NCBI GenBank assembly: GCA_051954615.1
Contig: JBQCHN010000096.1
Coordinates: forward strand, 17,030 to 81,029
Length of the DNA: 64,000 nt
Direction: 5' to 3'
Source of the DNA: Mesorhizobium sp.
GTDB taxonomy: Bacteria; Pseudomonadota; Alphaproteobacteria; Rhizobiales; Rhizobiaceae
Both the position numbers and the translations under genes were made by a program. The notes under the pieces were generated by a model, which saw nothing but the letters and a program-made list of their open reading frames with translations, did not search any database and was not told the origin of the DNA. Each line of letters starts with the position of its first letter. Positions within the stretch are counted from its first letter, which is position 1. Below, piece after piece: positions 3,300 to 21,484 of this stretch.

Positions 3300-3376
3300 A
3301 GATTAGCACCAATTCGCAGCTACCCAAAGGATTCGTAGCGCGCACTTTCGCTGTGCGTGACTTTTCGACGACTCAT

Positions 3377-3439: not shown

Positions 3440-3487
3440 AGGATTCCCTCAGGCGGCCAGTCTTGGGCTGCCGGGCGGCGTGCCGAT

Positions 3488-4429
3488 ATGAAGCTGTGCA
3501 TGAGTGAAAAAGCGCGGCCTGCACTAATAAATCCAATGAGGCAGCAAATGTATTCTGTGAGTTTAGAAGGTAATGGCGGACAATTTGAGAGAGATGAACC
3601 GTCTGCGCTTATTTCGATTGGAACGAGATCCGAGACTCCGGCCGCGGTCATCGTCTGGTCGGAAGATGGCGGCCCCTTGCGTCGCATTGTCAATGGACGT
3701 GCGCGCAAACCCACGGGAGTAGAGCCCTGTATGAAAGCTGGGGGCAGGGGAATGCCTTGGGAATCCGAAAAGGCTGAATTCCCGGCGCTATTGCTGGCCG
3801 AGGTGGGATCTCCGGTAATCGATCTACTCGCCCAGCCTCATCGATTGGAAATGTCAGTTGTTGGTCGGCGGCAGCGCATGGTCTATTTCCCAGATCTATT
3901 ACTAACCGTCGAGGAAGGCTTTCTGCATTTGCTGACGAAGGGTGTGCCCTTCGGCCGCGCCGTCGTTGAATGGAGACCTGATCCCCGCCGCTGTCCGCAT
4001 CCCAGCAAACTTGTCGTGGAAGTAAAGGACGACGCCGACGGCAGGATGAATGACCCAATCTATAGGGAGAAGCTACGCCTCGCCCGCGAGGTCTACGCTA
4101 TAGCTGGCTATAGCTTCATTCAGATAGTCCGTTCTGTCGACATCGACTGCGTTGACAGGCGAATTATCAACGACGTTCTGTTGGATAAGCGTACGGTCAT
4201 CACTGCAAGCGAAGTTGGGCGGGCGGTTCGTTACCTGCGTTCTCAAGGCGGCCGAGGAACATTGGGTGGCCTAATCGACGTGCTTGGTGGTGGAACGTTG
4301 GCGAGGGCTGTGGCGAAAGCCCTGCATGTGAGGCGCATTTTATCAATCGATCTCACAGGTCCTCTCCAGCACTCAAGTTGGGTGTGGCTCATTCGGCCCT
4401 ATGGGTTGGAGGGATGCTATGCGAACTAA
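3488..4429 (+). CDS. tnsA: TnsA-like transposition endonuclease
   Basis: The motif set WESEKAEFPALLLAEVGSPV..LAQPHRLE..YFPDLLL..VVEVKDD matches the TnsA restriction-endonuclease-fold N-domain. The track ORF starts at 3353, but ATG 3488 sits downstream of the putative end sites. Confidence 0.85.
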   Translation: MKLCMSEKARPALINPMRQQMYSVSLEGNGGQFERDEPSALISIGTRSETPAAVIVWSEDGGPLRRIVNGRARKPTGVEPCMKAGGRGMPWESEKAEFPALLLAEVGSPVIDLLAQPHRLEMSVVGRRQRMVYFPDLLLTVEEGFLHLLTKGVPFGRAVVEWRPDPRRCPHPSKLVVEVKDDADGRMNDPIYREKLRLAREVYAIAGYSFIQIVRSVDIDCVDRRIINDVLLDKRTVITASEVGRAVRYLRSQGGRGTLGGLIDVLGGGTLARAVAKALHVRRILSIDLTGPLQHSSWVWLIRPYGLEGCYAN

Positions 4430-6689
4430 GATCGATGCGAAGATAGGGGAGACATACGTCTTCGTCCATGATGAGCCGAACCGATTGTATTGGCTGAAAG
4501 CTGTTACACCGAAAGGCAAATTTGTATTCTTTGATGAAGGTGGACATAGGAAGACCGTTGATCCCGTCGCATTCGAGCGAATGCGCGGCGATGGCCATGC
4601 CCGGCGTGTCCACCGCACGGGGATCACCGAAAGGGGTTTGCTTCCTCGGCACATCAATCCAAGCGTATTTATGGATCCCGCAGAAGACGCCAAATCACAG
4701 GGCGAAATCAACCGACGCAGAAAAGATGCGCGGACCCTCGATGAAGCCAGGACGCTCTATTTTTACACCAAACTGCTTGCTGAAAGCCCGGGTGTAACCT
4801 TCCACGTACCTGCCTTGCAGAGATTTATCGACGATAACTGCGCAGATGCTGAGGCAGAAGGACTGTATTGGAAACCCTCCCCCAGTGCGTTGAAGCGAGT
4901 TATCGATAAACACGGAGGTAAAGCAGAAGGCATTACGTTTGCTGCGATCTATGACCAGCGGAGGAAATGGTCACCAAGACAATGCTGGGATTCGCCGATC
5001 GTGAAAATGCGCAACAAAGTCGTGAAGTTCTATTGGTCGGATCGAGAACCGCCCTGCACCCTCACGGAAGCGCACGCATTTTTCTTCGCCACGATGATCA
5101 GGCTCAACAGGCGGCGTATCCGAGCAGGAATGGAGCCGTATAAAGTTCCGGTCCCTCAGACAGTTACCAACTGGATCGCGAAAGCGAATTCTAAGGCGAA
5201 TTTTGCTAGGCGGCATGGCCCCGATGAAGCAAGGCGCAAGATGGGCGCACGCGGACGCTCTACGGAGGTAAGCAGAGCGCTTGAGGTCGTTTTGATGGAC
5301 AATACTCAGGTGGATGTGTGGGCTGTCGTGCGTTCACCTGACGGGCAGATTATCGACCGCGTCAGACCGTGGCTGACTCTTGCCGTTGACGTCTATTCTC
5401 GGATGATTGTCGGCGTGCATCTTTCACTTGAGCCGGCGTCGCTGTCATCGGCTCTGGAATGTCTGAAACAGGTGGTGCGCCGTAAGGAACAGTTGATCAA
5501 GCGCTTTCCTGAATGTCCGGAAGCGGCAGACTGCTGGGGTCGAGTAGGCACCCTTATTGTAGATAACGGGTTAGATTTTGCGGCGCTGAGTTTCAGGGTT
5601 GCATGCGAATATGCCGGCATATCGCTTCGTTTCGCACCGGTGCGCACCCCCGAGTACAAGGGGATCGTCGAAAGGACATTTGGCACTCTTAACACCAGCC
5701 TCTGGCACCGACTTCCTGGGGGCATAGCTGAGACACCACAGGAGAGATCAAGGCTGCGCAAGGATCCTCGAGACCATGCTCATTTCACAGTGGAGGAACT
5801 CGAGCATCGCATGTGGGGCACCATAGTCCCGATACTCGGAATGAGTCCGCACACCCAGACCGGAGTTGCTCCCGCTAAACGCTTCTTCGAGAGTATTCGT
5901 GCCCACGGTCGGCCGACAGTGGACGATATTAGTTCTTTCGATGCAATTCTAGGGCAAACGAAGCGGTGCCTCCTCACCGCTGAAGGTATTCGATTCGACA
6001 ACCACAGATTCCACGATCCCGTCCTAACTAGCGAGTTGCTTGAGGACATGCTGTCGGATGCCAAAGAACGAGGACAGAGGAAGGTCGGTTCTTCCGCCAC
6101 CGTGTGGGTCTGGGCTCTAGCAACGCGGGAGGATTGCAGCCAGGCGATCGTGTATAATACTAAGAGGAAGGAGGCCGTGAGGCTTCCAAACTGGGACCCG
6201 GACATTCGGCCCTTAACTTCGTACAAGGAGGCATCGCTCCAAAGAGCACACAAGGATGCCGCGAACGAAGCCTATTTCTCCAGTGACGATCGGTGGCTCG
6301 CCCGAGACAGGGAGAGACGATCCCGTGAGGTTCCCAAGGCGAGAAAGCTACCTCGGAAGCCAAGAGAATTCTCCGAGATTGTACCTGCTGGCGGATTGCA
6401 GTTGATAGATGGAGCCGTAATCGAGGAGCGCTCGGTCGCACCGTCTGTCTCGGGGAGTCGCCCTGTCGATGTTCCGGGACGCATGCCCTTACACGAGCGG
6501 GTCGATGATCTCATTCCTCCGAAGGACCAACCAAGAGGGCGGGCGTCTTCCCGTAAGAGGAAGGCCGTCCGTGCCGCACCTAGAGGAAATGATGCGCTGC
6601 CGTTAGATAATATAGCTCCTGTACGCCCCTCTCAGTTCCGCATAGATGACCCAACCGCTTTTATGGCAAGTCTCGAGAGTGGAAAATGA
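4419..6689 (+). CDS. tnsB: TnsB-like DDE (retroviral-integrase-fold) transposase
   Basis: DDE triad context: LMDNTQVDVW, LIVDNGLDFAA, KGIVERTFGTLN. ATG 4419 is preceded by GGAGGG. The gene overlaps the tnsA stop (4429). Confidence 0.9.
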   Translation: MRTKIDAKIGETYVFVHDEPNRLYWLKAVTPKGKFVFFDEGGHRKTVDPVAFERMRGDGHARRVHRTGITERGLLPRHINPSVFMDPAEDAKSQGEINRRRKDARTLDEARTLYFYTKLLAESPGVTFHVPALQRFIDDNCADAEAEGLYWKPSPSALKRVIDKHGGKAEGITFAAIYDQRRKWSPRQCWDSPIVKMRNKVVKFYWSDREPPCTLTEAHAFFFATMIRLNRRRIRAGMEPYKVPVPQTVTNWIAKANSKANFARRHGPDEARRKMGARGRSTEVSRALEVVLMDNTQVDVWAVVRSPDGQIIDRVRPWLTLAVDVYSRMIVGVHLSLEPASLSSALECLKQVVRRKEQLIKRFPECPEAADCWGRVGTLIVDNGLDFAALSFRVACEYAGISLRFAPVRTPEYKGIVERTFGTLNTSLWHRLPGGIAETPQERSRLRKDPRDHAHFTVEELEHRMWGTIVPILGMSPHTQTGVAPAKRFFESIRAHGRPTVDDISSFDAILGQTKRCLLTAEGIRFDNHRFHDPVLTSELLEDMLSDAKERGQRKVGSSATVWVWALATREDCSQAIVYNTKRKEAVRLPNWDPDIRPLTSYKEASLQRAHKDAANEAYFSSDDRWLARDRERRSREVPKARKLPRKPREFSEIVPAGGLQLIDGAVIEERSVAPSVSGSRPVDVPGRMPLHERVDDLIPPKDQPRGRASSRKRKAVRAAPRGNDALPLDNIAPVRPSQFRIDDPTAFMASLESGK

Positions 6690-7708
6690 TTTCCATCTTC
6701 AAGCCGCCAACCGACGGTCAGATACTTTCTGCCTTCGACGAGATGTTGATCTGCCACAAGAGAGCGCAACAGGCACAGTCAATATTTGACTCCCTGAGGG
6801 AGGCCAAACGCTTATCGCCAAACACGCCTAAGAATTGGGTCGCGCTCTTCGCTCCAAGCTTTAGCGGAAAAACCCGGGCCGTCATGCTCTACATGGAACG
6901 CGTGATAGATGACGCGATCGCATCGGGTCGCTTCCCGCCGGAAATGACAAGAAATGAAATCGGAAAGGCTCAGACCAAAGTCATCTACCTCTCCATTCCG
7001 TCATCGAACGTTACTCAGAAGACGGTAATCACGATGTTGCTCGCGCGGTTGGGCGATCCGCTACCGGACAAGGGGAATACCGGCCAGCAGTTACAGCGCC
7101 TCTATGAGTTGATGCATAAGCTCGGCGTGGAGTTGGTGATCCTGGACGAGATGCAGCACTTGAGCGCAGCGATGCGCGAAGGGGCGCGGTCGCGCTCGAA
7201 GGATGGTCAGTACGCTCCGATTCCATATTTGATCAAGACGCTCCTCGATAACGGCCATGTTCCGATAGTTTGCATCGGGATAACTGAAGGAAGGAGTCAC
7301 TTGATGAGCAACAATGAACTCAGAAATAGATGCTTTAAGGAGTTAGATTTCTTACCAATTAAACCAGATAGCATTGATATGCTGGAAGTACTCGCGAAAT
7401 ATTTTGGAATGCTTGCGAATAAAATTGTTGAATATGGGCTTTTCCCGGATGTTCCTGATTTTATTTCTGGCGAGATCCCGGATTGTTTTGTGGATGTGTC
7501 GGGCGGCAAGATCGGTGAAGCCACTATGTTGGCACGAAGCGCCTGCTGTTTCGCAGCTCATCGAGGAGCGCGTTGCGTGGAATATGAGGACCTCGAAGCC
7601 GCTACGGACGAGGCGATTGCTGCAGGTAAGGTCAAGATCAATTTTTTCCGTCTGCGCAGGGAGAAGAAGGAGAGGGAAAGGGAACGGGAACTGGAAATGG
7701 CGGGATGA
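6686..7708 (+). CDS. tnsC: TnsC/TniB-like AAA+ transposition ATPase
   Basis: Walker A APSFSGKTRAV and Walker B LVILDEMQHL. There is a 4-nt overlap with tnsB and with tniQ. Confidence 0.88.
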   Translation: MISIFKPPTDGQILSAFDEMLICHKRAQQAQSIFDSLREAKRLSPNTPKNWVALFAPSFSGKTRAVMLYMERVIDDAIASGRFPPEMTRNEIGKAQTKVIYLSIPSSNVTQKTVITMLLARLGDPLPDKGNTGQQLQRLYELMHKLGVELVILDEMQHLSAAMREGARSRSKDGQYAPIPYLIKTLLDNGHVPIVCIGITEGRSHLMSNNELRNRCFKELDFLPIKPDSIDMLEVLAKYFGMLANKIVEYGLFPDVPDFISGEIPDCFVDVSGGKIGEATMLARSACCFAAHRGARCVEYEDLEAATDEAIAAGKVKINFFRLRREKKERERERELEMAG

Positions 7709-9714
7709 GTGGCTTGGCGGGAGAGTCTCAACGTGCAACTCGTGCACCCGGCATGGTTGAGGCCGTCTGGGACCGTGGACATCTCGCGATCCCGATTGCA
7801 CCCCTTCCGGGCGAAGGGCTTGCTGAGATGATTGTCCGCGCAACGGCCGAGAACAGCTACGGATGTTGCGCGACGATCACGAACGCTCTCGGGATCCGTG
7901 GAAAGCTCCCTGTTGGGTTGGCGACAAGATTTCAAGCGCGAGAAAAGGCGTTGGCTTCCTTGCTCGGTATTCCAGGCGAAGGCGAAAGCTTGAGGAGCCT
8001 ATTGTACCTACCGATGGAAGCGCGCACGGGTTGGCAATCGTTTTTTGGTACTTCCATACGGCAGATTTACCGTGAGGTTGCCGGGCGGCGCGTTTCGCCG
8101 CGAGCGTTGGCAATCTCCCCACATCTTAGGGCGATCTGGTCTGTTCGAATTTTCCCTTTCGATCCTCTAACCAAGGAAATGTTGATCAATCGATGCCCAG
8201 TTTGCTCCAAGTCCTTCGGATGGGCGAGGACGCGCGGGACTGTCTATTGTGATCAATGTCTGTCCATAGACGACCATGGTTGCGAACGAGGCATAGTCGA
8301 TCTGCGCGATTTTCCACAGCCTTTGGTAGATGAAAAGCATTGGGCTAAATTGGATATTCTGACGGGTCTTATTGATCCAGATCAGAGCATTCGCGCGGAT
8401 TTCAATCCACAGCTTCCTGAGGTTTTCAGGGTCTTTGATCGCGGCGAAATTTTTGAATTTGCGGTAGCGTTGGGATCCGCATTCGAGGGTCCGAGCAAAT
8501 CGCAATCATGTTATCTTAGCCGTGCTGCCAATAAGGAACAATGTTTGCGCTTTACGCCGGCCGCTCTGGCTAAGGTCGCAACAGCGCTCTTGGATTGGCC
8601 TGCAACATTCAACTCTGCAGTGGAAGCAACTCGAAATGACGCTTGGAACGATGCCGGCAACCTCCGGTGGCGAACGGTCTTTGGCTCATTCGCGCAACTA
8701 GCTATAGATCGCTTCATCCATCCTGGCCTGCAGAAATTGGTTCGAGGGGAGTTGGAACGGCACCTCGTGGGTTATCATAGTGAGATGCCTAGAATGAAGG
8801 GCGGTGTGAAGCGCCAAGATATGAACGCAGTTCCTATCTGCGTCGCCAGTGAAATCCTCAAGACGTCAAGGACGAGGATTAGCAGGCTGGTAAAACGCAA
8901 GAGGGTTTCCGCCATCACAACTGGCACGTCATCGAAGGCGTCTGTCCTCGTGTCGGTGCCACGGATCGCCGCTATCATCGCTGCAGATGCCGAACTCGTT
9001 TCAGTGGAAAGTGCAGCTTCCCGCTTGGGGCTTCCTGGGCTTGCTATACTTTCCCTAGTGGAGGACGGATTGTTGAGAAAGGGAGTCAACCATGAGGGCC
9101 AACACGTAGCTAAAACCGTAGCACGATGTTCGATAGACGAGTTGATTCGTACATTAGATGAGCGGCTGTGCCATTCTGCACCGCCGCCGAGAGTTCTCTC
9201 TCTTTTTTCTGCAGCCATCCTACTGGGTTCTCCCCGATCGAATCCTTGGCCTGACCTTCTGCAGTTGGTAATCCGGAAAAAGGTGACCGCATGGAAACGA
9301 AGGCTGCAGGGACCGGTGTCATCCTGCATCGCTGTCAATTTGAACGAAATAGAAGACCGGATAAGTTTGAAGAGACCATGGGCTTGTAAGGGCGACGCGA
9401 CTATATCTCACCGGGATGCCATCAGATTGCTGGGAACTAACGGAATGGTCCTGTATGCATTGTTTGACGCTGGTATACTCCCGCGCAAACTTCTGCTGTC
9501 CCATCTTCAGGCGTTTTCCAGTTCAAACGTCCTTACTGGGGAATTGCTGGATCAACTCACTGCCCGCGATATCTCGACGGTTCCCTACGCATTGATTCAA
9601 CATCTCCAAAAGCGAGGATTGCACGCCACCTCGGTGAAACGCGGCCTCGTGAGGCGCTGGATTTGGCCGCGTGCGAAAGCGGAAGCTGCCATAGGACATA
9701 TTTTAGTTGCCTAG
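7705..9714 (+). CDS. tniQ: TniQ/TnsD-family target-selection protein (669 aa)
   Basis: N-terminal TniQ pattern IPIAPLPGEGLAEMIVRATAEN and zinc module CPVCSKSFGW..YCDQC. Fourth gene of the overlapping tns operon. Confidence 0.85.
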   Translation: MSGLAGESQRATRAPGMVEAVWDRGHLAIPIAPLPGEGLAEMIVRATAENSYGCCATITNALGIRGKLPVGLATRFQAREKALASLLGIPGEGESLRSLLYLPMEARTGWQSFFGTSIRQIYREVAGRRVSPRALAISPHLRAIWSVRIFPFDPLTKEMLINRCPVCSKSFGWARTRGTVYCDQCLSIDDHGCERGIVDLRDFPQPLVDEKHWAKLDILTGLIDPDQSIRADFNPQLPEVFRVFDRGEIFEFAVALGSAFEGPSKSQSCYLSRAANKEQCLRFTPAALAKVATALLDWPATFNSAVEATRNDAWNDAGNLRWRTVFGSFAQLAIDRFIHPGLQKLVRGELERHLVGYHSEMPRMKGGVKRQDMNAVPICVASEILKTSRTRISRLVKRKRVSAITTGTSSKASVLVSVPRIAAIIAADAELVSVESAASRLGLPGLAILSLVEDGLLRKGVNHEGQHVAKTVARCSIDELIRTLDERLCHSAPPPRVLSLFSAAILLGSPRSNPWPDLLQLVIRKKVTAWKRRLQGPVSSCIAVNLNEIEDRISLKRPWACKGDATISHRDAIRLLGTNGMVLYALFDAGILPRKLLLSHLQAFSSSNVLTGELLDQLTARDISTVPYALIQHLQKRGLHATSVKRGLVRRWIWPRAKAEAAIGHILVA

Positions 9715-9730
9715 ATTGACAGGGAAGTCC
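9703..9730. repeat. repeat family copy A (TTAGTTGCCTAGATTGACAGGGAAGTCC), contains the tniQ stop codon
   Basis: Matches 19965-19992 at 26 of 28 positions in direct orientation. It fills the 17-nt gap between the convergent tniQ and the 841-aa gene. Confidence 0.8.
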
Positions 9731-9731: not shown

Positions 9732-12257
9732 CTAATTCGTTAGACGACTCTCGTCGGCATCCTCCGGATCACTAATCAAGTCGAGTGTCCAGGTGTTTTG
9801 GACCGTGTCATAACACGCTTCAAGTGACTGCAGTTGTGACGAAATCTGGTTTCTCTCTAAAGGCCGCCCGAGTTTATCTTCCGCCGCAGTCAAAATTTCA
9901 GTGAGCGTCAAAGGCTTTGAACTCTCTCCCATTATTGCGGCGACAACATCATGCAAACTCTCTCTTCGCGGTGATCCCCATTCTGTCAAATAAAGATAAC
10001 GGCCAGTGCTGACTCGCATACGGTCGTCGGAGGTTGAGAGGCTGAAGAAGGCGGTGACGGTCAATCCTGATGCTTTCAAAGCAGCCGATCTTTCCATCTC
10101 CGAATAATGCAAGCCTGCGCCACGAGTTCGAAGAAGGTGCACTACTCCGTCCAGCAATCGACGTTGGTCCGCTCTCTTTATCGGCACGTCTCGATCATTT
10201 AGCCCCCACACGCCCGGAGCAGTTCTGATCACCGGATCGATAGAGAAAATCTGGAAGAGCTTGTCTACACCGCGCGATGCCATCACGCGCTCCCGAAGCT
10301 CTTTGGTTGTAAGCGGCCCCCCAGCATTCTCTAGAGCCGCAATGGTCGCTTGTCGGATGTCGATCCGAAACTTATCATCCTGTCCATCCTTGATGTCCAG
10401 CGTCCACACGAGACGCCCGAGTCGCTCTACACCCCCAATGCGTTTTAGCGCGATATCCAGCAAGTACTTGTCGAACCTTTCTGCGTCTGGGATGTCACGC
10501 TCGGAGAGTTCAGCAACCAACTCCGACGTGTGCCATTGGCGGCCTCGTGGGCCCTCCGCGATAATCTGCTCTGCTTCCTCTGCAATCCTTAGCATCGTGT
10601 CCGCATCAACGACGACGTGCTTGTCGAGGCCATATGTGCCACGCCCGAACAGAAGGCCCACATTGGCCGCAGCGTTGTGAGCACGTCTGACGTCAAGATT
10701 GTGAGAAAAGCTCTGCGCAACTAGCTCGGGTAATTCTGAGTAGTGGAGCGGTCTATCTGAGGATGAGAGGGTCGCGTATACGAGATTTTCGGCAGATTTC
10801 CCGAAACTTGTGAGAATGCGGCCCTCAACGGTTTCGGTGAATTGAGCGTCGCGGGTGGCGGTTTCCCACAACAACTCGCGAAACTCGCGGCATTGATCTG
10901 GCAACAGCGGTAAGATCACGGATCTGCAATGCTCGTGCGACCAATTGTGGTCTGCGCCGTCATCAAGCAAGCGTCGAGAGGCAGAGACGGCGTCTTCCCA
11001 CTCACTTTGCCGCATTGCACCCAAGTATTGGACGCCATCAATTTCGATAACTCGTATTGGCGTAGATGCAACGTGTTCCAAAAGATACGCGAGGGTTTCT
11101 AAGTGATCGGCAATTCCAGAGAACCAAGCATCTGCAGCCTCCAGACCATGTAAGGGGATGGGCATAATCCGCTCTCTGATGATCTGGTCCACTCGGTGTG
11201 CCAACTCGTCATCCCAAGTCTCTAACTTGATGATGCGAGCAACCATCTTCGATTCAACTTGGCGAATGCGTTCACGAGTGACGCCAAAGCGTTCCCCGAG
11301 TTGTTGGAGGGTTTCAGCGGTGCCCCCATATCCCATACGACGGATAACAATCTCTCTTTGCCTTTCGGAGAGTGTAGCCAAGGACGCATCCAGCGATTCT
11401 AACAACGTCGACCATCGACGAACTTCATTTTTGTGAGAGTCGACGTCGCCCGATGGGCTACCGTAACTGTCTTCTGGGCCCCGATCCAACGCGGACATCA
11501 GAGAAGAGAACAGGTCCCAAGCAGATTTGCGCCCGAAATTCTGCATGTGCAGAAGGTCGTCAAGCGATAGTGACGCAAGATCGCCAATAGTCTTAATATT
11601 TTTCACGCTGAAGACGTTCGCCACTCGCACCGTTACATCGATCGACTCGACGGTTCGTTCGCTTAGCCAAGGCGGTGCGGCGCGGGCCACGCTGCATGGG
11701 TCTTTAGCTTCTCCAGTTAACATCTGCCCGAACCTGAAGAGCCCGAGATCGTGCCGAAGAGTGCGGGGTAACTTATGTTCAAAGTCCAGATAACTGGCCT
11801 CGTTGAATATGCCAAACTGGCGAAGCTGCTCCTCTCGATCCGCAAACTTCACAAGGAAACGGCGCACCCACCCGTCCGGGGACCATTCTTGGGCTTGCTG
11901 AACAGGAGTTGACGCGGGGCGAATCTTGTCCTCTAGTTCGTAGCCCCAGCCGCGCAAAGCTAGGTAGATTGGGATTCCTGCAACTTTCCCGAGAGACGTA
12001 GAGGAAGAGACAAACCCGGATGGCAGTCCATACTTTGCTGATTCAGTCAGCAGCAGATGGCCAGCGTGTTCACTGACAATCTCCTCAAAGTCGCGAGATG
12101 GAGGCCGGGAGAACCCAACGTGGAGCACGCCGACGCTAGCATCCGGCGATGGACGAGATTTCCAACTTTCGAGCAACTCTTCCAATTCACGATGGACGGT
12201 AACGGTCCATTCGGCATCATGCCGAAGCATCAAAAATGCCCGCAAAGGAATAGTCAT
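9732..12257 (-). CDS. 841-aa multi-domain DNA-binding protein: RNAP alpha-CTD-like HhH + sigma-70 region 4 HTH + several HARE/winged-helix modules
   Basis: Alpha-CTD-like segment: VRVANVFSVKNIKTIGDLASLSLDDLLHMQNFGRKSAWDL. Sigma r4-like segment: LSERQREIVIRRMGYGGTAETLQQLGERFGVTRERIRQVESKM. Repeated PL(T/H)..EL....wHTH-like segments occupy the C-terminal half. The start overlaps the upstream stop (TAATG). Confidence 0.8.
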   Translation of the reverse strand: MTIPLRAFLMLRHDAEWTVTVHRELEELLESWKSRPSPDASVGVLHVGFSRPPSRDFEEIVSEHAGHLLLTESAKYGLPSGFVSSSTSLGKVAGIPIYLALRGWGYELEDKIRPASTPVQQAQEWSPDGWVRRFLVKFADREEQLRQFGIFNEASYLDFEHKLPRTLRHDLGLFRFGQMLTGEAKDPCSVARAAPPWLSERTVESIDVTVRVANVFSVKNIKTIGDLASLSLDDLLHMQNFGRKSAWDLFSSLMSALDRGPEDSYGSPSGDVDSHKNEVRRWSTLLESLDASLATLSERQREIVIRRMGYGGTAETLQQLGERFGVTRERIRQVESKMVARIIKLETWDDELAHRVDQIIRERIMPIPLHGLEAADAWFSGIADHLETLAYLLEHVASTPIRVIEIDGVQYLGAMRQSEWEDAVSASRRLLDDGADHNWSHEHCRSVILPLLPDQCREFRELLWETATRDAQFTETVEGRILTSFGKSAENLVYATLSSSDRPLHYSELPELVAQSFSHNLDVRRAHNAAANVGLLFGRGTYGLDKHVVVDADTMLRIAEEAEQIIAEGPRGRQWHTSELVAELSERDIPDAERFDKYLLDIALKRIGGVERLGRLVWTLDIKDGQDDKFRIDIRQATIAALENAGGPLTTKELRERVMASRGVDKLFQIFSIDPVIRTAPGVWGLNDRDVPIKRADQRRLLDGVVHLLRTRGAGLHYSEMERSAALKASGLTVTAFFSLSTSDDRMRVSTGRYLYLTEWGSPRRESLHDVVAAIMGESSKPLTLTEILTAAEDKLGRPLERNQISSQLQSLEACYDTVQNTWTLDLISDPEDADESRLTN

Positions 12258-12637
12258 TACTCGCTAGCTTTCGCTGCGACCTGATCAAATATGGCCACGA
12301 AATCTAGATTCCCGTTTCGGGCTTGAGCCGAAAGCTCATTGACACCCCACTCGGCCAGCCGTTCAATCAGCCTGTACGGAGTTATTTCGGCGACCTCTTC
12401 CGGCATTAGCATTTCAACGGAACGACGGAATGACTGGTCGGGGTCCAACGAGCCTATATTCAGAAATGGCGAACGGTCCGATAGCTCAGGCGGGATGACG
12501 CCTTGTGCCAGTGCGAGAGAAACCGCAAATCGAAAGCCGTCCATCTTTTCTGCGAAAATGCCGCTCTCTTTGAGGTCGTCGAGCTTGTCGTTTCCAGCCT
12601 TCGACAACCCAATCGTCACGATTTCCTGTTGGCTCAT
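12257..12637 (-). CDS. DndE-like small DNA-binding protein (126 aa)
   Basis: Size, position directly after a DndD-like gene, and the pattern LSKAGNDKLDDLKESGI...FRFAVSLALAQG...LDFVAIF resemble DndE. ATGA overlap with the upstream gene. Confidence 0.5.
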   Translation of the reverse strand: MSQQEIVTIGLSKAGNDKLDDLKESGIFAEKMDGFRFAVSLALAQGVIPPELSDRSPFLNIGSLDPDQSFRRSVEMLMPEEVAEITPYRLIERLAEWGVNELSAQARNGNLDFVAIFDQVAAKASE

Positions 12638-14619
12638 AGCGCCACCCGCTCGATACGCGACTGGGTCGGAGAAACCTCTACAATCTGGTAAGTGCCGCCA
12701 ATTCTCGATCTGATGCTGCTCAAATCTGTATCGGGGCGGATTTCACCGCTATGGACAAGAAGCACAAACTGACTGGTGACCTCTGGCAGATATCCGAGGA
12801 TATTATCGCGATGGTTGAGGTCTAGTCTGCCAAACGGTGTATCCATTATAACTGGTCCTACCGCTCGGCCTGTACGATTCAAACCATCGATTAGGGACAG
12901 GGCCACAACTTGTTCAGCACCAGCACTTCTGATCGTTACTTTTCGCCCCATGTTATCGATGATGCTTAGTCCGTAGTTGGAATTGATCTCCAGGCCGCGA
13001 TAGCTTTTCTGCGTGGTCATCCTCCGAAAGGCATCATTTGCCAAATCTTCCACGCGCGATCGCAACCTATCTCGGAGTTTCTCGATGCTGGCTGCAAACA
13101 CGCGCTCTAGTTGCTGCGTGATATTGACTTTGGACGTGCTGCGGCGTGAGCGGGAGGCGGCCAGGCCTGCAATTGCCTTTTGAGCAATCGCCAGGTCCTG
13201 ACGCACTTTATCTATATCTTTCTTTACACGCTCGATATCGCTCTGAAGACGACCTTCCTCTTTCACAGCATCGTCTTTGAGCACCCGTTTTCGAGCCAAC
13301 TCGGCAGTGTCTTGGCCGCTGATCTCATCTTGTATCGATTCTATGTCGTTTTCAGTCCGCTGCAATTCGACCAACGATCGCCGCATGTCGCGATCAATCT
13401 CGCGTAGGCGATCTGCGGCGTTAACGCCTCGTATTTTACTAATTGATGCGAGTTGTCCCGCGATAGACTCAAGCTCGTTGGAAGTATCTTTAGCGCGAGA
13501 CAGTTCAGCCTCCAAAGAGCCAAGTTTGGTTCCGAACTCGTGATTGTGACCTGAGTCAACCTTTTGACCGCATGTTGGGCAAACACCTTTTGCAACTAAA
13601 TCTTGTAGTTGACGCACTGTACCCTCAAGCTTCGCTTGATGCTTGACCTCTTGCGTAAGTTCTCGGCGACGGTATTCGAGAGCCGATCGCTTTGTACTGA
13701 GCTTCGCATCCAATAGGTCTTGCCATGCTTGTCCCAAAAGTGTTCTTCTGTCGATCTCTTTTTGCCTGATAGTGATATCAAGATTTGATTTCACTAATTT
13801 CAAGCCATCAAGTTTCGCCTTTTGAGTAATTAGGGTATTCGCCGCCTCTAAATCATCTTCCAACTGCGTGCGCGACTTCCGTGTTTGCTCTAATTTTAGC
13901 TGGAGCGTATCCCGGTCACGTTCCAGAGCTTCTTGACGTGTCATCAAATCTCTTTGGTTTGCAGCTTGCCGCTCCAAGCCATTAATCTGCTGAAGTTCTA
14001 CTGCTTGTTGTTTCTGCGCTCCTTTGAGGATCGAGCCGAGTTCAGCCCGCCCCTTGGTTAGGGCCGGAACACCCAAGACATCCTCAATCGCCTCCTTGAT
14101 CTGTCGCCCTTGCTCGCTTCCTTCGATCAGGAGGCTCTCATATTCTTGCAAAAGTTCGCCGTCGAAAAGGAAGAAACGAGAGATTTGCTCCGGGGCGATC
14201 TGATCGATCTCTTGCTTAATTTGATCTCCGCTAACAGCAGAGCCATCCTTTGTCAGGTGCTCCGATACGGTGAAGTCTTCGGGGCGTGCTGGGATTGCGA
14301 CATTCGCTCGACGATCAGCGATTCGTCGAAGGTCATACATTGAGCCATTTGCTTCAAATTGAACGAAGACTTGAACGCGCCAATCTCCTGCCGCCGCAGC
14401 ATCTTTGTTCACGATATCTTGCATCGGGATTGGCCGAGAATGGCGGCCGATGGCTTTGCCGTAGAAGCCCCATCTCAAGGCGTTCAAGAAACTGGTTTTA
14501 CCCCGCATGTTGTCGCCGAACACGATCATGACATTTCGTTGCTCGTCCGTGGGGAATTCGAGCGACATGTCGCCGTGGTAGGGCATGAAGTTTCGTGCTG
14601 TGATCCGGTGTAATTTCAT
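12634..14619 (-). CDS. DndD-like SMC/Rad50-type ATPase (661 aa)
   Basis: Walker A GDNMRGKTSFLNALRWGFYG, FFLFDGELL, long coiled-coil middle with CPTCGQ, and C-terminal VIMDTPFGRLD. Confidence 0.8.
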   Translation of the reverse strand: MKLHRITARNFMPYHGDMSLEFPTDEQRNVMIVFGDNMRGKTSFLNALRWGFYGKAIGRHSRPIPMQDIVNKDAAAAGDWRVQVFVQFEANGSMYDLRRIADRRANVAIPARPEDFTVSEHLTKDGSAVSGDQIKQEIDQIAPEQISRFFLFDGELLQEYESLLIEGSEQGRQIKEAIEDVLGVPALTKGRAELGSILKGAQKQQAVELQQINGLERQAANQRDLMTRQEALERDRDTLQLKLEQTRKSRTQLEDDLEAANTLITQKAKLDGLKLVKSNLDITIRQKEIDRRTLLGQAWQDLLDAKLSTKRSALEYRRRELTQEVKHQAKLEGTVRQLQDLVAKGVCPTCGQKVDSGHNHEFGTKLGSLEAELSRAKDTSNELESIAGQLASISKIRGVNAADRLREIDRDMRRSLVELQRTENDIESIQDEISGQDTAELARKRVLKDDAVKEEGRLQSDIERVKKDIDKVRQDLAIAQKAIAGLAASRSRRSTSKVNITQQLERVFAASIEKLRDRLRSRVEDLANDAFRRMTTQKSYRGLEINSNYGLSIIDNMGRKVTIRSAGAEQVVALSLIDGLNRTGRAVGPVIMDTPFGRLDLNHRDNILGYLPEVTSQFVLLVHSGEIRPDTDLSSIRSRIGGTYQIVEVSPTQSRIERVAL

Positions 14620-14623
14620 CTGA

Positions 14624-14827
14624 CTAGCTCTGCAGGTGGTCGAGCATGTTTTTGACGTGTACGTCTATGAGCCTCTCCATCTCTATCTGAGACGCGGAGC
14701 GATCGTCGCTAAACTGAAAGCGCTTTTGGACCTGATAGCATTGCTTCAACAGGAGATCATCGACCGTCGGTTCCGCCTCTTGGCGAACCGAAAGTAGAGT
14801 CTCTAGGGTCAGGTCTTCGTCTGACAT
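14624..14827 (-). CDS. 67-aa acidic hypothetical protein
   Basis: Wedged between the helicase (1-nt TAATG overlap) and the DndD-like gene (4-nt gap). I count 14 D/E against 7 K/R. Confidence 0.55.
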   Translation of the reverse strand: MSDEDLTLETLLSVRQEAEPTVDDLLLKQCYQVQKRFQFSDDRSASQIEMERLIDVHVKNMLDHLQS

Positions 14828-16920
14828 TATTCGTCCCCCTCTATTCCGGTATCGGTTAGCGTGTCAGGATCAATACCAAGCTCGATGGCAATAGCCCGCA
14901 ACTCCGCACCACCAGCGCGATTTAACGCATGAGATGAAAACTCGATCGAGCGAACAAGTTCTGCCTTAAGAAGACCCATCTGATCTGACTCGTCTTCGGC
15001 ATTTACGGGTACAACGATCGCGTCGTGAATCACTGCCAAGTCTTTCTCGGGCGATTTTCGAAGTACGCGACCTCTACGTTGTATGAACTGCCTTGGGTTT
15101 TGGGATGAGGCCAGGATGAGCGCATGCGAGATCGAGGGAATATCGACACCTTCGTCAAGGCAGCGAATTGACACTAAAACGCCTCCAAAAGTGCGGAACC
15201 ATGTCAGAGTTGCATTGCGATCGCCACTCATCGAAGAGTGATACTCTACGGCATCAATACCAGCGTCTTTCAGACTTCCGAGGACGACTCCCAATTGATC
15301 CGCGTCTTCACAATAGACCAGCCAACTCTGACCTTTCTCGAAATGATTTTTTAGAACGCTCACCGCCAGTGCCACCTTTGCAGTGGCCTTCTTGGCAACA
15401 CGTGATCGTTGGATCAATAACATCTTGGCTCGTTCCGAAACGGACTTTTTTCCGTTCGAATCAGTGGGTTGTCTCGCAATTTCTTGACGTATCGAATGGG
15501 TGATCTTGCTCCATTCTTCTGCTTCTGTTGCCGAAAGGTGCACCGGGTGAGGGAAATATTCATATGGGACCAAGCGCCCGGCATTAATCGCATCATTTAT
15601 GGTGATGGGTGGTGGAACGACTTCTCCGAAATACTGGAACATCCTTGCGGTCCCGTCTTGGTCACCAAATCGCTGGGGAGTTGCGCTCAGTCCAAGACGA
15701 GGGCCTGATGCGAGATTGTAGACATTCGAATTTCGACGGCTCCCTGATTGGTGCACCTCATCTGCTACAAGCATCAGGTGATCGCCGCCCCTTACCAAAT
15801 TCAGAAAATCCAAACTCGATGCGGTTTGCATGGTCGACAGCACGATCCTAGCACCGAGTGAGGGATCGGGGTCCGTCATGCTTTGAAGGCGTCCAGCTTT
15901 TTTCCACCCGTCGTTTCCGCCTCCAGCTAGCATCAGAGCCGCAGACGGAACTTCTTCGCGAAGCTCTTTGGCCCACTGCTCCAAAAGCAATTGACTTGGC
16001 ACCAACACCAACGACGGTAGGCCCAGACTCAAGTGCTTATTGAGAGCGGTAATAGCCGTAAAAGTCTTGCCACTCCCTGTCGCATGCTCAAAAATGCCAC
16101 GGCGGCCACTAGCTTCCCAACGACTGATTGCATCCATCTGATGGGGTAGTGGGGTGCGCTTGTCGCGAACTGGCTGCAATTGCAGTTCCGTCACGTCGTC
16201 CAACCCTTTCAGAGCGTGTTTCTGCAGACGTTCGATAGCAACGCTGGGAAATGGAAACACTTCCACGTCCCGGTCGGTTTGTGACCATAGTGAATCGAAA
16301 TGATTTTCATGGCGATTAACACGCTCAGCTTCCAATCCACCGCGCCAGCTGCAAAAAACTTCTATTGATTCAAAGTTACCGCTTGGGTCCCATGCGCTCC
16401 ACGTCTCGTTAGCCGATCCTTTGAACGAAACTCTGTTGCCCAAACCGTCCGAGAAAATGCCCAATTTTTCGTGATATAGCCCCTTTCGATCTGATCGAAA
16501 TGCGAGCTTTATCTCCAACGCATTTACGGCGACCAGGGTCGCTAGAATGCGTGCGTGTTGTTGAGTCGTTGGTTCCGATAAGAGCTGGTCGATTTGCTCA
16601 ACCAATCGTTGAGCGACGTGGCTGCTTCGTTTCGCGTAACCGAGCACGATCGAGTCGATGTCTGATGGATCAAGCTCAGGCGAACAAATCAGACATATTT
16701 TCCCTCCGCGACGTGCGAAGTCTACAACACTGCCCCCCGTGACGACGAAAACCGTCGAACGGAAATATCCTGCCGCGCGCTTGTAGGTATTTGAGTGCTG
16801 GAGACAGGGTCTGTAGAAGCTCGTTGCGGGCGTCTCTTTGATTGAGCGGTACTCTGTACGGAGATTGAGCACGGATAGATCGCCGAGAAATTCGTTACGG
16901 ATCGTGCTGCTCCCGGTCAT
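14827..16920 (-). CDS. PLD-family (single HKD) nuclease fused to SF2 DEAD/DEAH-type helicase; restriction-enzyme-like
   Basis: HKD motif YHEKLGIFSD..FKGSANETW. Helicase motifs HATGSGKTFTAI, LVADEVHQSG, LSATP and QRRGRVLR. Confidence 0.85.
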   Translation of the reverse strand: MTGSSTIRNEFLGDLSVLNLRTEYRSIKETPATSFYRPCLQHSNTYKRAAGYFRSTVFVVTGGSVVDFARRGGKICLICSPELDPSDIDSIVLGYAKRSSHVAQRLVEQIDQLLSEPTTQQHARILATLVAVNALEIKLAFRSDRKGLYHEKLGIFSDGLGNRVSFKGSANETWSAWDPSGNFESIEVFCSWRGGLEAERVNRHENHFDSLWSQTDRDVEVFPFPSVAIERLQKHALKGLDDVTELQLQPVRDKRTPLPHQMDAISRWEASGRRGIFEHATGSGKTFTAITALNKHLSLGLPSLVLVPSQLLLEQWAKELREEVPSAALMLAGGGNDGWKKAGRLQSMTDPDPSLGARIVLSTMQTASSLDFLNLVRGGDHLMLVADEVHQSGSRRNSNVYNLASGPRLGLSATPQRFGDQDGTARMFQYFGEVVPPPITINDAINAGRLVPYEYFPHPVHLSATEAEEWSKITHSIRQEIARQPTDSNGKKSVSERAKMLLIQRSRVAKKATAKVALAVSVLKNHFEKGQSWLVYCEDADQLGVVLGSLKDAGIDAVEYHSSMSGDRNATLTWFRTFGGVLVSIRCLDEGVDIPSISHALILASSQNPRQFIQRRGRVLRKSPEKDLAVIHDAIVVPVNAEDESDQMGLLKAELVRSIEFSSHALNRAGGAELRAIAIELGIDPDTLTDTGIEGDE

Positions 16921-16942
16921 GAAGTTACAGCCGCCCTCGATT

Positions 16943-18076
16943 CTACTCTGCGAGGGACCCGGTAAATTCAGAGAACCGACCTTGTGAACCCCTTACGTAG
17001 TCAGGATCGGCTTCAACTCCGATCCATTTGCGTCCCAACGCTTGCGCGACGGCCCCGGTGGTGTTCGATCCTGCGAAGGGATCGAGAACCAAGTCATTGG
17101 GCGATGTCAGAAACTGCACAAAGAACGCTGAGAGCATTGCTTGCATGCGAGCGGGATGGGCGGGAAGATTATGCGTTTTGCAATAGTCGCGATAGTTTGC
17201 GTCCCACTTGGTGCCTGAGAATTTCAGGAGCGCTTCGGGCGCATTGGTTTCATCGGCAAGTTCAAGCACATTCGCTGAAATCGCTCCACCATGATCCCTT
17301 AGAAAGCCTGTTTCAGAAATCACGTGCCCAGATGGTCGAGCACCAGGATTGTATTTGCCTGTTTTGAGCAGGCGCTTCATGTCTTTGCTGTAAGGCTTAA
17401 GGACGTTGCGGTTGTCGGCCTTAGGGTCCTTGGACTTCGACATCCACCAGACGTGTGTGAATGAGTCCTTTAACCTGACCCGCTTGACGTTCACCCATGC
17501 TGCGGGGCTAGGTAGCCGGGCTGGATTGTGGCAGATCACATGCTGACAGAGATACAGTCCGGCAGATTTTTTGATTTCAAGTAGAGCTTCGAGTGGAAGC
17601 GTAGACATCACTGGAGCCCCTTCTTCCCAAGCGTTCCCGATCTCGATAACAATCGAGCCGTCGTCCGTCAGAAGTTCGGCTAGTGGTTTTGCGAGGGCGC
17701 TCAGCCACTCTATGTACGCCTGCCCAGTTTCATTTCCATAGCGTTTCTTTCGAACGAGCGGAAAGGGCGGCGATGTTACTATCAGATTAACCTTGCCCTT
17801 CAGGTCCAGTAAGGCAGCGGAATGAAGCGCGTGCTCAATTCTGCCATGAAGCATGGTCCCCGAACCTGTTTGGTAGGCCTTGACTACGGGACCGACCACG
17901 TCCTCCGACGGACCCGTCTCACTGACGGGCGATATCAGATGCAAATGCGCATTGACGGATATCTGCTTGCCTTTCGCCGTGTCAGCGATGGCTTTGCCCT
18001 CGGCTTCTCGACCGTTTTTCTCGACGCAACGAGCTTTCCTCACCACGCGCCCATTTTTTTGCGCATGCTCATTCAA
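16943..18076 (-). CDS. beta-class N4-cytosine/N6-adenine DNA methyltransferase
   Basis: Motif IV IVTSPPFPL comes before motif I VLDPFAGSNTTGAVA. SPPF favours m4C, but this is not decisive. Confidence 0.85.
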   Translation of the reverse strand: MNEHAQKNGRVVRKARCVEKNGREAEGKAIADTAKGKQISVNAHLHLISPVSETGPSEDVVGPVVKAYQTGSGTMLHGRIEHALHSAALLDLKGKVNLIVTSPPFPLVRKKRYGNETGQAYIEWLSALAKPLAELLTDDGSIVIEIGNAWEEGAPVMSTLPLEALLEIKKSAGLYLCQHVICHNPARLPSPAAWVNVKRVRLKDSFTHVWWMSKSKDPKADNRNVLKPYSKDMKRLLKTGKYNPGARPSGHVISETGFLRDHGGAISANVLELADETNAPEALLKFSGTKWDANYRDYCKTHNLPAHPARMQAMLSAFFVQFLTSPNDLVLDPFAGSNTTGAVAQALGRKWIGVEADPDYVRGSQGRFSEFTGSLAE

Positions 18077-18293: not shown

Positions 18294-18419
18294 GATTATT
18301 GCGACAAGGCGGAAATCCGACGACGAGGGGCAATCAGGTATGTTTCTCGGATATTGGGTCAGTGAATTCGATGCTACCCGATCGTCTCGGGCGGATGAAA
18401 TTTTTGGTTGGAGATCGCC

Positions 18420-19193
18420 ATGGTGTCTGAAACTCGTTCACCTCGGCTTGCGGTTCTGATCGATGCAGACAACGCCTCGGCAAAGATCGCCGACGGCCTG
18501 TTCGAAGAGATCGCGAAGATCGGCGAGGCCAGTGTCCGGCGGATCTATGGCGACTTTTCGAGTACGCGCTCAAAGGCTTGGGCCGATATCCTATCGAAAC
18601 ATGCGATCATACCCCAACAGCAGTTCGCCTATACGACTGGCAAGAACGCCTCCGATATAACATTGGTGATCGATGCGATGGACCTGCTCCATAGCGGGCG
18701 GTTTGACGGTTTCTGTCTCGTCTCATCTGACAGCGACTTCACGCGGCTTGCTGCCCGAATCCGTGAGCAGGGCGTTGATGTCTTCGGTTTCGGGGAGCAG
18801 AAAACGCCTGAAAGTTTCCGTCAGGCCTGTCGCCGATTTATCTATACCGAGAATCTGCTGCCGTCTGCCCCTGCAAACGAACCAGAGGCCGCACCGAGCA
18901 CGAAGTCCCTGCAGCCACCGTCGGCGGCCGTGCCGATCATCCGGAAGGTCATCGCGCAGATGGAGAGCGAGGACGGTTGGGTTCCGCTCGGTGCGGTCGG
19001 CAATCAGCTCGCCAATCTGGCTTCCGATTTTGATCCCAGGACATTTGGCTTCCGCAAACTGAGTGATCTCGTGCGGAAAACGAATGCATTCGACATCGAG
19101 CATCCCGAAGGTGGCAGCATGCGGATTCGTATCAAGCCCGCCGGCAACCGACCCTCGACGACTAAATCAAAGGGACCGAGATCCAAGGGCTGA
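18420..19193 (+). CDS. NYN (LabA-like) ribonuclease-fold protein with C-terminal OST-HTH/LOTUS domain
   Basis: LAVLIDADNAS and FCLVSSDSDFTRLAARIREQG mark the NYN domain. The C-terminal segment GWVPLGAVGNQLA..FGFRKLSDLV is LOTUS-like. Confidence 0.8.
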   Translation: MVSETRSPRLAVLIDADNASAKIADGLFEEIAKIGEASVRRIYGDFSSTRSKAWADILSKHAIIPQQQFAYTTGKNASDITLVIDAMDLLHSGRFDGFCLVSSDSDFTRLAARIREQGVDVFGFGEQKTPESFRQACRRFIYTENLLPSAPANEPEAAPSTKSLQPPSAAVPIIRKVIAQMESEDGWVPLGAVGNQLANLASDFDPRTFGFRKLSDLVRKTNAFDIEHPEGGSMRIRIKPAGNRPSTTKSKGPRSKG

Positions 19194-19964: not shown

Positions 19965-20068
19965 TTAGTTGTCTAGATTGACAGGGAATTCCTGCCCGAC
20001 CGCTTTGGGGCGGCGGAGTTGGGAAAGCGGCCATTCGGCTGGCCGTCGTATTTCGACGGCAACGCGCC
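19965..20068. repeat. repeat family copy B (28-nt motif plus 78-nt extension)
   Basis: 19965-19992 matches 9703-9730 at 26/28. 19991-20068 matches 24368-24445 at 60/78 ungapped, by my own column count. Confidence 0.75.
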
Positions 20069-20166: not shown

Positions 20167-21060
20167 TCACTTGCGGAATCGGGGAGTCCAGCTTTCGATC
20201 AGCGCGTCTTCGTCATCGTCTTCAGGCTCGGCCTCAGAGCGCATGCTGAGCGACTTGCACGTCAGAATCGTCAGAGTACGCCCGTACTGCCCAAGTCCGA
20301 CCACCTCTTCGGTGATGCGATAGTTGCCGCCGCCGCCCATCCAGTCACTCAACCGTCTCTGGCCCTCGTCGCGTTGACCTGTACGCACGTTCTCGGGGCT
20401 GGCATTAAACTGCGCCGTAATGGTGCCTGAGGGAACGCCGATGCCCTTTCGCAGGTAGGTCAGTCCCTTCGCCTGCTTGAGGCCATCAGACATGAAGCAC
20501 CAGTCAACGGCGTCGCCTGTCGTGCAGATGACTGCAACACCGTCTGATGTAAGGGTGCAGTATCGGATGGCGGTCGCCGTCAACGACGTTTCGCATTCTT
20601 TTCGCAGCGCCTCGACGCAGGCCAAGCCCGCATCCCGATCCGCAATCGCTTTCTTGAACGGCGCTTCCGGCATGAGAAGAGCGGCTGCGAAGTGATCCGC
20701 CTCTTGTTCAAAAGGATCACCTGACACGAAGCCCGCGCGTGATTGATGAACACCCGTCGTGAGCAGCGCTTCGGGGTGTCCTTCAATGAAGTAGTGTCCC
20801 AGCTCGTGGCTGATGCTGAACCTCTGAAAGCCACGGCTGGGAATGTTCGTTGCGTACATGATGCCGAAATCATCACCGGCTTTGATCAGCATACCCGAGA
20901 CGCCTGAAGCTGTGTCAGGCTTAGGCCGCACCATGATCCCCTTCGTGGCAGCGATTGCCTCGGGGTCGACCCACAGTCCTTCAACCTTCATCTGCCGAAG
21001 CACTGCATTGGCAGCAGCCTCAGCCAGAGTACGACGTGCGAGCCGCGGTTTCGTGTTCAT
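20167..21060 (-). CDS. ImmA/IrrE (M78) zinc metalloprotease, CapP-like
   Basis: HELGHYFIEGH motif. ATGA overlap with the upstream XRE gene. Confidence 0.85.
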   Translation of the reverse strand: MNTKPRLARRTLAEAAANAVLRQMKVEGLWVDPEAIAATKGIMVRPKPDTASGVSGMLIKAGDDFGIMYATNIPSRGFQRFSISHELGHYFIEGHPEALLTTGVHQSRAGFVSGDPFEQEADHFAAALLMPEAPFKKAIADRDAGLACVEALRKECETSLTATAIRYCTLTSDGVAVICTTGDAVDWCFMSDGLKQAKGLTYLRKGIGVPSGTITAQFNASPENVRTGQRDEGQRRLSDWMGGGGNYRITEEVVGLGQYGRTLTILTCKSLSMRSEAEPEDDDEDALIESWTPRFRK

Positions 21061-21410: not shown

Positions 21411-21431
21411 GGTGCTTCCGATATGGATAAC

Positions 21432-21475: not shown

Positions 21476-21484
21476 AATTATGCC

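Follow-up and report, generated by a model that had tools for sequence, protein, structure and literature searches.

A DndD-like/DndE-like gene pair of Mesorhizobium sp. as the probable core of a methylase-coupled Pbe/CxC defence operon

In the haloarchaeon Haloterrigena (Natrinema) jeotgali A29, the genes pbeABCD lie beside dndCDEA and guard the cell from virus; each of the four has a share in this, that of pbeA being partial (Xiong et al. 2019, PMC6459918). Virus carrying the phosphorothioate (PT) modification escapes this system, viral DNA is not visibly degraded, and pbeC and pbeD are needed for restriction and not for PT modification (PMC6459918). Of 553 PbeAC pairs surveyed in that study, only 42% had DndCD nearby; 320 were without it, 155 of these having a candidate base-modifying gene within 10 kb, and 105 pairs had both DndCD and a methylase nearby. 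A pairing of Pbe with methylation was accordingly suggested already in 2019 (PMC6459918). A later comparative study (Rakesh et al. 2024, PMC10853773) equates PbeABCD with the CxC ABC-ATPase system described in 2020: PbeA is a fusion of an HKD endoDNase and a superfamily 2 (SF2) helicase, PbeC is the CxC ATPase, PbeD is a DndE cognate, and PbeB is a small protein that evolves rapidly. The same study describes CxC systems that carry cytosine methylases, either C5 or circularly permuted N4, and CxC systems from many taxa whose genomes lack Dnd. It mentions an MTaX1-domain gene for methylase-bearing versions and proposes two modes of action, in which either unmarked DNA is restricted or a suicide response is set off by way of the small protein (PMC10853773). 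Methylase-coupled, PT-independent Pbe/CxC systems are already reported from genome comparisons (PMC6459918; PMC10853773), and the locus described here is a fresh example; an experimental test of such a version was not found in our literature search. The locus lies in a 64-kb stretch of Mesorhizobium sp. DNA (the window), where a prediction made from the sequence alone (the original prediction) had noted a DndD-like ATPase of 661 amino acids (aa), a DndE-like protein of 126 aa and a 67-aa acidic open reading frame (ORF), and had regarded the pair as an orphan devoid of sulfur-insertion partners.

All three ORFs were present on the minus strand exactly where they had been placed (67-aa ORF, 14624-14827; 661-aa ORF, 12634-14619; 126-aa ORF, 12257-12637). 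The orphan framing did not stand, the pair being the middle of six minus-strand genes that span positions 9732-18076. Immediately upstream are the genes for PbeA (697 aa, an HKD/PLD nuclease plus SF2 helicase, 14827-16920) and for an M.PvuII-like methylase (377 aa, 16943-18076); the sixth gene, for an 841-aa accessory protein, occupies positions 9732-12257. The methylase gene ends 22 nucleotides (nt) upstream of pbeA, the pbeA stop and the start of the 67-aa ORF (pbeB) overlap as TAATG, and pbeB and the ATPase gene (pbeC) are separated by a 4-nt gap. The predicted ATGA overlap of the 661-aa and 126-aa genes was found (gcgctATGAgcc), and the stop of the 126-aa gene (pbeD) overlaps the start of the 841-aa gene as TAATG. 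Because junctions on the same strand overlap or nearly touch across all six genes, the unit is a single translationally coupled operon. Promoter and terminator scans of the operon gave counts at or below shuffle expectation. With a probability of about 0.75, we take the pair to be PbeC and PbeD, the DNA-scanning core of a Pbe/CxC defence system that is paired with an M.PvuII-like N4-cytosine methylase and not with DndCDEA. A PT-independent role of the pair is likely.

The 661-aa protein matched the PADLOC PbeC model PDLC02725 over positions 1-646 of 646 (5.9e-290, 961 bits), as compared with 163 bits (2.7e-48) for the best PADLOC DndD model; the DndD equivalog TIGR03185 (NCBIfam) gave 135.3 bits and did not reach its cut-off of 245.85. 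Because the PADLOC PbeC model was so far superior and TIGR03185 stayed below cut-off, the ATPase was placed in the sister clade of DndD. As judged from these profiles, it is a CxC-clade ABC ATPase, DndD-like as had been proposed but not DndD. The Walker A motif reads GDNMRGKT (residue 35), and the coiled coil has a zinc-hook-like CxxC apex, CPTCGQ, at residues 347-352 (nt 13581-13564). Cys347 and Cys350 did not vary among 14 aligned homologues from different genera, and a CxxCxQ string was found in 78 of 80 related PbeC loci. Canonical DndD is without a Cys hook according to PMC10853773, whereas PbeC has the invariant CxxC. The earlier remark that CPTCGQ recalls the hook of Rad50 was sound: residues 305-409 matched the Rad50 zinc-hook fragments 1l8d and 6zff in phmmer searches (E ~3e-4). 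PbeC shares with Rad50 of Mre11-Rad50 an antiparallel coiled coil with CxxC at its apex, this weak direct match to hook fragments, and an ABC head with Walker A and signature motif. It differs from Rad50 in its much shorter coiled coil, the whole protein having 661 aa, and in its context, which is a defence operon rather than repair and includes no Mre11-type partner. A chromosome-maintenance ATPase of the Rad50 or structural maintenance of chromosomes (SMC) type was ruled out, as NCBIfam Rad50 models gave 47-53 bits against cut-offs of at least 1000, and Pfam scans found no Mre11/SbcD-type phosphoesterase among the neighbours.

The 126-aa protein matched no Pfam, PADLOC or NCBIfam family at E<=0.01. 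Neither the protein nor 32 homologues matched Pfam DndE (PF08870) at E<=10, its profile returned noise only from the PDB sequences, and a bona fide Vibrio DndE gave no tblastn match to it. The same library detected the true DndE of a Vibrio profundum locus at 1.7e-35. PbeD proteins of three other Pbe loci were equally undetected by Pfam DndE, implying that the failure is a property of the model and not of the 126-aa protein. The original prediction had named failure in DndE profile detection together with a match to another family as evidence against DndE; the profile failed at the sequence level, but no other family was matched. The DndE link came from structure, and weakly from hhalign, after sequence methods had failed. 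An AlphaFold2 model computed with 33 homologues consisted of two strand-helix-helix units (predicted local distance difference test, pLDDT, 87.8). Its 14 best Foldseek matches in the PDB were all DndE (4lrv, 5wtu, 7x4e), with probabilities of 0.80-1.00, template modelling (TM) scores of 0.42-0.68 and E values of 0.06-0.75, whereas the probability of every other match was at most 0.18. Alignment by hhalign with a canonical DndE profile of 18 sequences, the first member of which scored 1.7e-35 on Pfam DndE, was weak (probability 34%, E 4e-4, 47 columns) and in register over the first ribbon-helix-helix (RHH). From the predicted fold, and in line with the place of its gene directly behind the ATPase gene, we conclude that the 126-aa protein is a divergent "clade-2" DndE cognate with two RHH units, its link to DndE at the sequence level being weak. 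The proposed fit to DndE held for the overall fold, which PbeD would share with the small protein of canonical DndABCDE; the Pfam DndE profile, which detects canonical DndE, is blind to PbeD.

PbeA matched the PADLOC PbeA model over its full length (1e-211) and TIGR04095, dnd_restrict_1, at 5e-94, under the cut-off of the latter. Pfam recognized ResIII, DEAD and Helicase_C, which make up an SF2 motor with the motifs GSGKT at residue 282 and DEVH at residue 387, and a weak PLDc_2 at the N terminus. An HKD-type signature, HEKLGIFSD...GSAN, lies at residue 150, and HxK...GSxN was conserved in 75 of 76 related loci. PbeA accordingly consists of an N-terminal HKD/PLD-type nuclease domain fused to an SF2 helicase and is the putative translocating effector. 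For the 67-aa protein, the count of 14 Asp/Glu against 7 Lys/Arg in the translation agreed with its description as acidic. It reached 23.5 bits (6.1e-5) on Pfam Sp-DndD (PF20306), short of the gathering score of 27.2, while its homologue in one related locus (L005) has a precomputed PF20306 match. NCBI gives the counterpart on an Aurantiacibacter plasmid the name "DNA modification system-associated small protein", and tblastn found the position to be kept in most related loci at 31-62% identity. Size, position and these matches identify it as PbeB, the "SP" of CxC systems.

The methylase gave a Pfam N6_N4_Mtase match of 3.1e-34. Its closest solved relative was the N4-cytosine methylase M.PvuII (1boo), matched by phmmer over its full length (3.5e-65, residues 67-370). 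Motif IV (SPPF, residue 102) lies N-terminal to motif I (DPFAGSNT, residue 332), the circularly permuted order of the beta class, and SPPF or SPPY was present in 51 of 51 related methylases. The start of the gene is uncertain: TTG at 18076 yields 377 aa, whereas the gene caller on the source contig yields 366 aa. We regard the enzyme as a beta-class, predicted N4-cytosine methylase and as the proposed self-marking component. Methylases of the M.PvuII type act autonomously and site-specifically, each having a target-recognition domain of its own.

An alignment-based PbeC scan with one genome per species recovered 237 relatives, the best 80 of which were kept; a single-sequence PbeC scan of genome contigs found none, and relatives were recovered only with the alignment query. 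The 80 kept relatives were mostly from Alpha-, Beta- and Gammaproteobacteria, with a few from other phyla. The order PbeA-PbeB-PbeC-PbeD-841-aa protein was kept in all related loci whose length allowed it to be seen. Close homologues of the 126-aa protein belong to the same six-gene cassette in Rhizobium and in Desulfovibrio, where the cassette lies in an integrase/primase island, the surroundings being otherwise unrelated. A methylase of the same family was adjacent in 51 loci, where it shares the strand of the cassette and lies just upstream or else occupies the opposite strand and lies just downstream; in the clade of the window it is usually 20-200 nt upstream on the same strand. More distant loci, with PbeC 39-44% identical and mostly from Gammaproteobacteria, had as neighbours a second, canonical DndD plus DndE, together with DndC, DndB and often DndA; DndFGH was also present in the Vibrio profundum, Aliivibrio and Endozoicomonas loci.

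As the original prediction had advised, a phylogeny was computed. In the neighbour-joining tree of PbeC, rooted on canonical DndD and scored for DndC within 10 kb, the pair fell into a separate clade with its own conserved neighbourhood. This clade comprised 59 leaves, 52 with an adjacent methylase, none with DndC and 7 with neither detected; the sister group comprised 23 leaves, none with an adjacent methylase, 19 with DndC and 4 with neither. The tree separates the methylase-linked and Dnd-linked groups cleanly. A few members of the methylase clade were solitary, with unrelated genes upstream. The proposed PT-independent role fits a clade that is methylase-linked and never linked to dndC within this radius; what did not hold was the notion of an isolated pair. 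One Vibrio profundum contig (NZ_JAKJTA010000013.1, 8-21898) carries three proposed PT-related modules side by side in a single 22-kb cluster, in the order DndF-G-H, PbeA-B-C-D plus an alpha-CTD/sigma-4 protein (CTD, C-terminal domain), DndE-D-C-B on the opposite strand, and DndA.

Sulfur-insertion genes were sought in the window by two approaches, both of which agreed with the predicted absence of DndA, DndB and DndC from the 64 kb. Pfam detected no PAPS_reduct, Aminotran_5 or DndB domain in the 38 large ORFs of the window. The query set DndA-H was taken from the Vibrio profundum locus, its DndC, DndB, DndA and DndE having been confirmed by Pfam; in six-frame tblastn, DndA/B/C/E/F/G/H matched nothing in the window below E=0.25, and the one exception was DndD, whose ABC signature region matched PbeC. 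Canonical Dnd systems have DndC, DndA and DndB as partners, whereas the operon is without them within the window.

Compared with PbeABCD of A29, the locus has the same four-gene order and gene sizes (helicase-type PbeA, PbeB of ~66 aa, coiled-coil PbeC ATPase, small PbeD), and the PADLOC PbeA and PbeC models cover its proteins full length. It differs in that PbeABCD of A29 is coupled to DndCDEA phosphorothioation, whereas the partner here is a predicted N4-cytosine methylase; moreover, an 841-aa gene follows pbeD, and PbeD has 126 aa instead of 152. The features that PMC10853773 describes for CxC ABC-ATPase/DndE systems all recur in the window: the hook ATPase is accompanied by a clade-2 DndE and a rapidly evolving small protein, HKD and SF2 helicase domains occur in one protein, the N4 methylase is circularly permuted, and Dnd is lacking. 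The MTaX1 gene mentioned there had no match here, and the architecture of the 841-aa protein is not mentioned in the text examined. Type I/III/ISP restriction-modification (R-M) enzymes resemble the locus in combining a site-specific methylase with an SF2 translocase-nuclease, and PbeA gave weak matches to LlaGI/LlaBIII and to Type I/III R subunits. Unlike in these enzymes, the nuclease is predicted to be of the HKD/PLD type, recognition is apparently delegated to a separate ABC ATPase and RHH pair, and PbeB, PbeC/D and the 841-aa protein are extra subunits.

The mode of action is most likely R-M-like. The methylase would mark host DNA with N4-methylcytosine (m4C) at a target motif. PbeC dimers joined by their Cys hooks would loop or scan DNA at the expense of ATP, and PbeD would provide sequence recognition. 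A DNA-scanning or DNA-bridging role had been suggested for the pair in the original prediction, and such a role is likewise proposed for the ATPase and double-RHH protein in PMC10853773. At unmarked sites on incoming DNA, the PbeC/PbeD complex may recruit or license PbeA, whose SF2 motor would translocate and whose HKD domain would nick or cut the DNA or hold up replication in some other way. Acidic PbeB could act as an adaptor or a negative regulator, and the 841-aa protein with its multiple helix-turn-helix (HTH) domains might help to discriminate DNA or its modification state, or might connect the system with transcription.

Several points weigh against this interpretation. Defence by methylase-coupled Pbe, its m4C mark, its nuclease activity and any role of the 841-aa protein are inferences. 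The only tested system, which is archaeal and PT-coupled, reportedly acts without degradation of viral DNA (PMC6459918), so that a simple model in which unmodified DNA is cut may be wrong. No adjacent methylase was detected for seven members of the methylase clade, and some of these lie on contigs that are truncated. The absence of dnd genes pertains to the 64-kb window, outside of which lies the rest of the host genome, and the kinship of PbeD with DndE derives from a predicted structure, with Foldseek E ~0.06 and an hhalign probability of 34%.

The lack of visible viral DNA degradation in the archaeal system (PMC6459918) would also suit abortive infection, a mechanism we consider unlikely here. 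PbeB or the 841-aa protein would then restrain the PbeA nuclease until a phage factor freed it, host and phage DNA would be attacked or replication arrested, and the methylase would serve for tuning or partial protection. The same alternative is put forward in PMC10853773, where the small disordered protein is a negative regulator that can be released; copies of sigma region 4 and alpha-CTD are carried by the 841-aa protein, and a few members of the clade have no adjacent modification gene. The tight, clade-wide tie to a site-specific methylase is, however, a signature of self/non-self marking, and the escape of PT-modified virus in the tested system indicates discrimination by modification (PMC6459918).

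Somewhat more doubtful is a persisting dependence on PT through unlinked genes, the other option of the original prediction. Pbe would then read marks that dnd or ssp genes at another place in the genome produce, and the methylase would be an unrelated or additional R-M part. Such dependence is a feature of the founding PbeABCD, which needs DndCDEA-made PT, and the PbeAC pairs near both DndCD and a methylase, mentioned above, are in line with it (PMC6459918); so are the sister clade embedded in dndBCDE(A) clusters and a view of the host genome confined to 64 kb. Against it speak the clade of the window, in which 52 of 59 members have the methylase directly adjacent and none has DndC within 10 kb, and the CxC systems that occur in many taxa without any Dnd (PMC10853773). 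Also against it is the cassette, which travels as a unit across unrelated contexts (transposon, plasmid, integrase island), favouring a self-contained modification-restriction unit.

We regard it as highly improbable that the pair is a genuine DndD/DndE modification core which lost DndC, or never possessed it, and recruits the neighbouring methylase to write a mark, so as to target modification and not to belong to the restriction arm: methylase adjacency in the clade would agree with this, but the ATPase belongs to the CxC/PbeC clade and not to DndD, M.PvuII-type methylases act autonomously, and pbeC and pbeD are required for restriction and not for PT modification (PMC6459918). Since the Dnd-linked sister clade has a separate canonical DndD/DndE next to PbeC/PbeD, PbeCD is not what carries out modification in those loci. 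On the strength of the ATPase clade and of this separate pair, a true DndDE core was ruled out.

With the pair read as PbeC and PbeD of a methylase-coupled system, the apparent anomaly of Dnd-like genes without sulfur chemistry becomes a textbook case. The ATPase and double-RHH core would be a modular DNA-scanning unit that evolution has joined to more than one way of marking self, by phosphorothioate in the one clade and by m4C in the sister clade. The intact, compact and transposon-borne cassette is a reasonable candidate for testing methylase-coupled Pbe and could help to settle whether such systems cut DNA or block replication.

In the sixth protein of the operon, Pfam detected RNA_pol_A_CTD (2.9e-11), Sigma70_r4 (1.1e-10) and a weak HARE-HTH, domains that were found in 37, 37 and 32 of 37 homologues, respectively. 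The AlphaFold2 model (pLDDT 85.3) consisted of an N-terminal alpha/beta domain, an alpha-CTD-like helix-hairpin-helix, a sigma region 4 and a C-terminal series of winged helices, of which about five are of the HARE type; with a predicted TM score (pTM) of 0.44, the packing of the domains is unreliable. Foldseek matched sigma-A region 4 at 45% identity and a root-mean-square deviation of 1.3 A, and also the tandem winged-helix proteins SelB-C and UFL1. Among PADLOC models only MzaA was matched, through its sigma region 4 part, and the protein is absent from the PADLOC Pbe models; public annotation calls it "sigma factor-like HTH DNA-binding protein" or "HrdA". A homologue directly follows PbeD in every related locus long enough, in the methylase-linked and Dnd-linked clades alike, and was absent from the distant Pbe loci on Natrinema and Lactiplantibacillus plasmids.

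The MTaX1 domain, which the literature links to methylase-bearing CxC systems, had no match in the 841-aa protein or in 36 homologues. The alpha-CTD/sigma-4/HARE-HTH architecture was not found in the literature examined, including the portion of PMC10853773 at hand. That the gene is undescribed cannot be claimed, but it may be the only element beyond the published picture. The protein might read DNA or its modification state, might have a regulatory function, or might lure phage factors that are aimed at sigma region 4 or alpha-CTD; both of these are RNA-polymerase modules to which phage regulators commonly bind. It is conceivable, if unlikely, that the protein is a fifth core subunit of a bacterial Pbe subfamily, acting as an RNA-polymerase mimic, a decoy sensing phage proteins that hijack sigma region 4 or alpha-CTD, or as a modification reader, and in either case licensing PbeA; if so, sensing of transcription take-over would be coupled to a modification-based restriction machine. 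On an Aurantiacibacter atlanticus plasmid (NZ_CP015441.1, 9359-11894), an IS3 insertion cuts the homologue to 437 aa while the other five operon genes look intact, which amounts to a natural knock-out of the sixth gene and could tell whether that gene is dispensable. On a Natrinema sp. plasmid (NZ_CP082247.1, 12396-13319), a TFIIB-family gene lies ~0.9 kb downstream of the PbeD position; it is possibly an archaeal parallel to the bacterial sigma-like gene, or a coincidence.

The operon is carried in a low-GC island (0.51-0.55 at 2-18 kb, as compared with 0.57-0.66 further on) beside a Tn7/Tn5053-type transposition module. The module (plus strand, 3353-9714) converges on the Pbe operon with 17 nt from stop to stop. 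It comprises a 358-aa ORF without family assignment, an rve-family transposase of 762 aa (4401-6689), TniB (6686-7708) and a 669-aa protein with Cys-rich motifs (7705-9714) that had no Pfam match and occupies the place expected for TniQ/TnsD. The transposon probably carries the Pbe cassette as cargo. No relative of the four transposition genes was found beside the cassette in other loci, save a weak rve fragment in one of them (L074). A 28-nt direct repeat, TTAGTTG(C/T)CTAGATTGACAGGGAA(G/T)TCC, was found at 9703-9730 and 19965-19992 (26 of 28 positions identical, none expected by chance). With unrelated flanks, it brackets 10.2 kb that contain the six-gene operon and a gene (18408-19193, plus strand, divergent from the methylase) for a fusion of an NYN ribonuclease-like domain with OST-HTH/LOTUS. 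The repeat was present in no other fetched locus except the source contig of the window itself; an att-like scar and a transposase-binding site are both conceivable. A tRNA gene marking an integration site was not found.

Downstream of the operon, other likely defence or mobile genes were observed. A 79-nt direct repeat (19990-20068 and 24367-24445, 77% identity) abuts the second copy of the 28-nt repeat with its first copy. An HTH_3 (Xre-type) regulator gene overlaps a Peptidase_M78 (ImmA/IrrE-like) gene at 20167-21506 on the minus strand, a pair typical of mobile-element and defence-island regulation. The plus-strand cluster at 21790-24206 resembles a ubiquitin-like conjugation system and encodes a 107-aa Gly-rich ORF, Prok-E2_E (22100-22495), a JAB plus ThiF/E1 fusion (22492-23874) and a 111-aa Cys-rich ORF; it may be akin to the Bil-type E1/E2/JAB anti-phage systems. 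A 905-aa UvrD-like helicase (24870-27587, minus strand), which gave C-terminal and partial helicase-domain matches only, lies at the edge of the low-GC island, and metabolic and transport genes (GntR/ABC-transporter) follow from ~28.6 kb.

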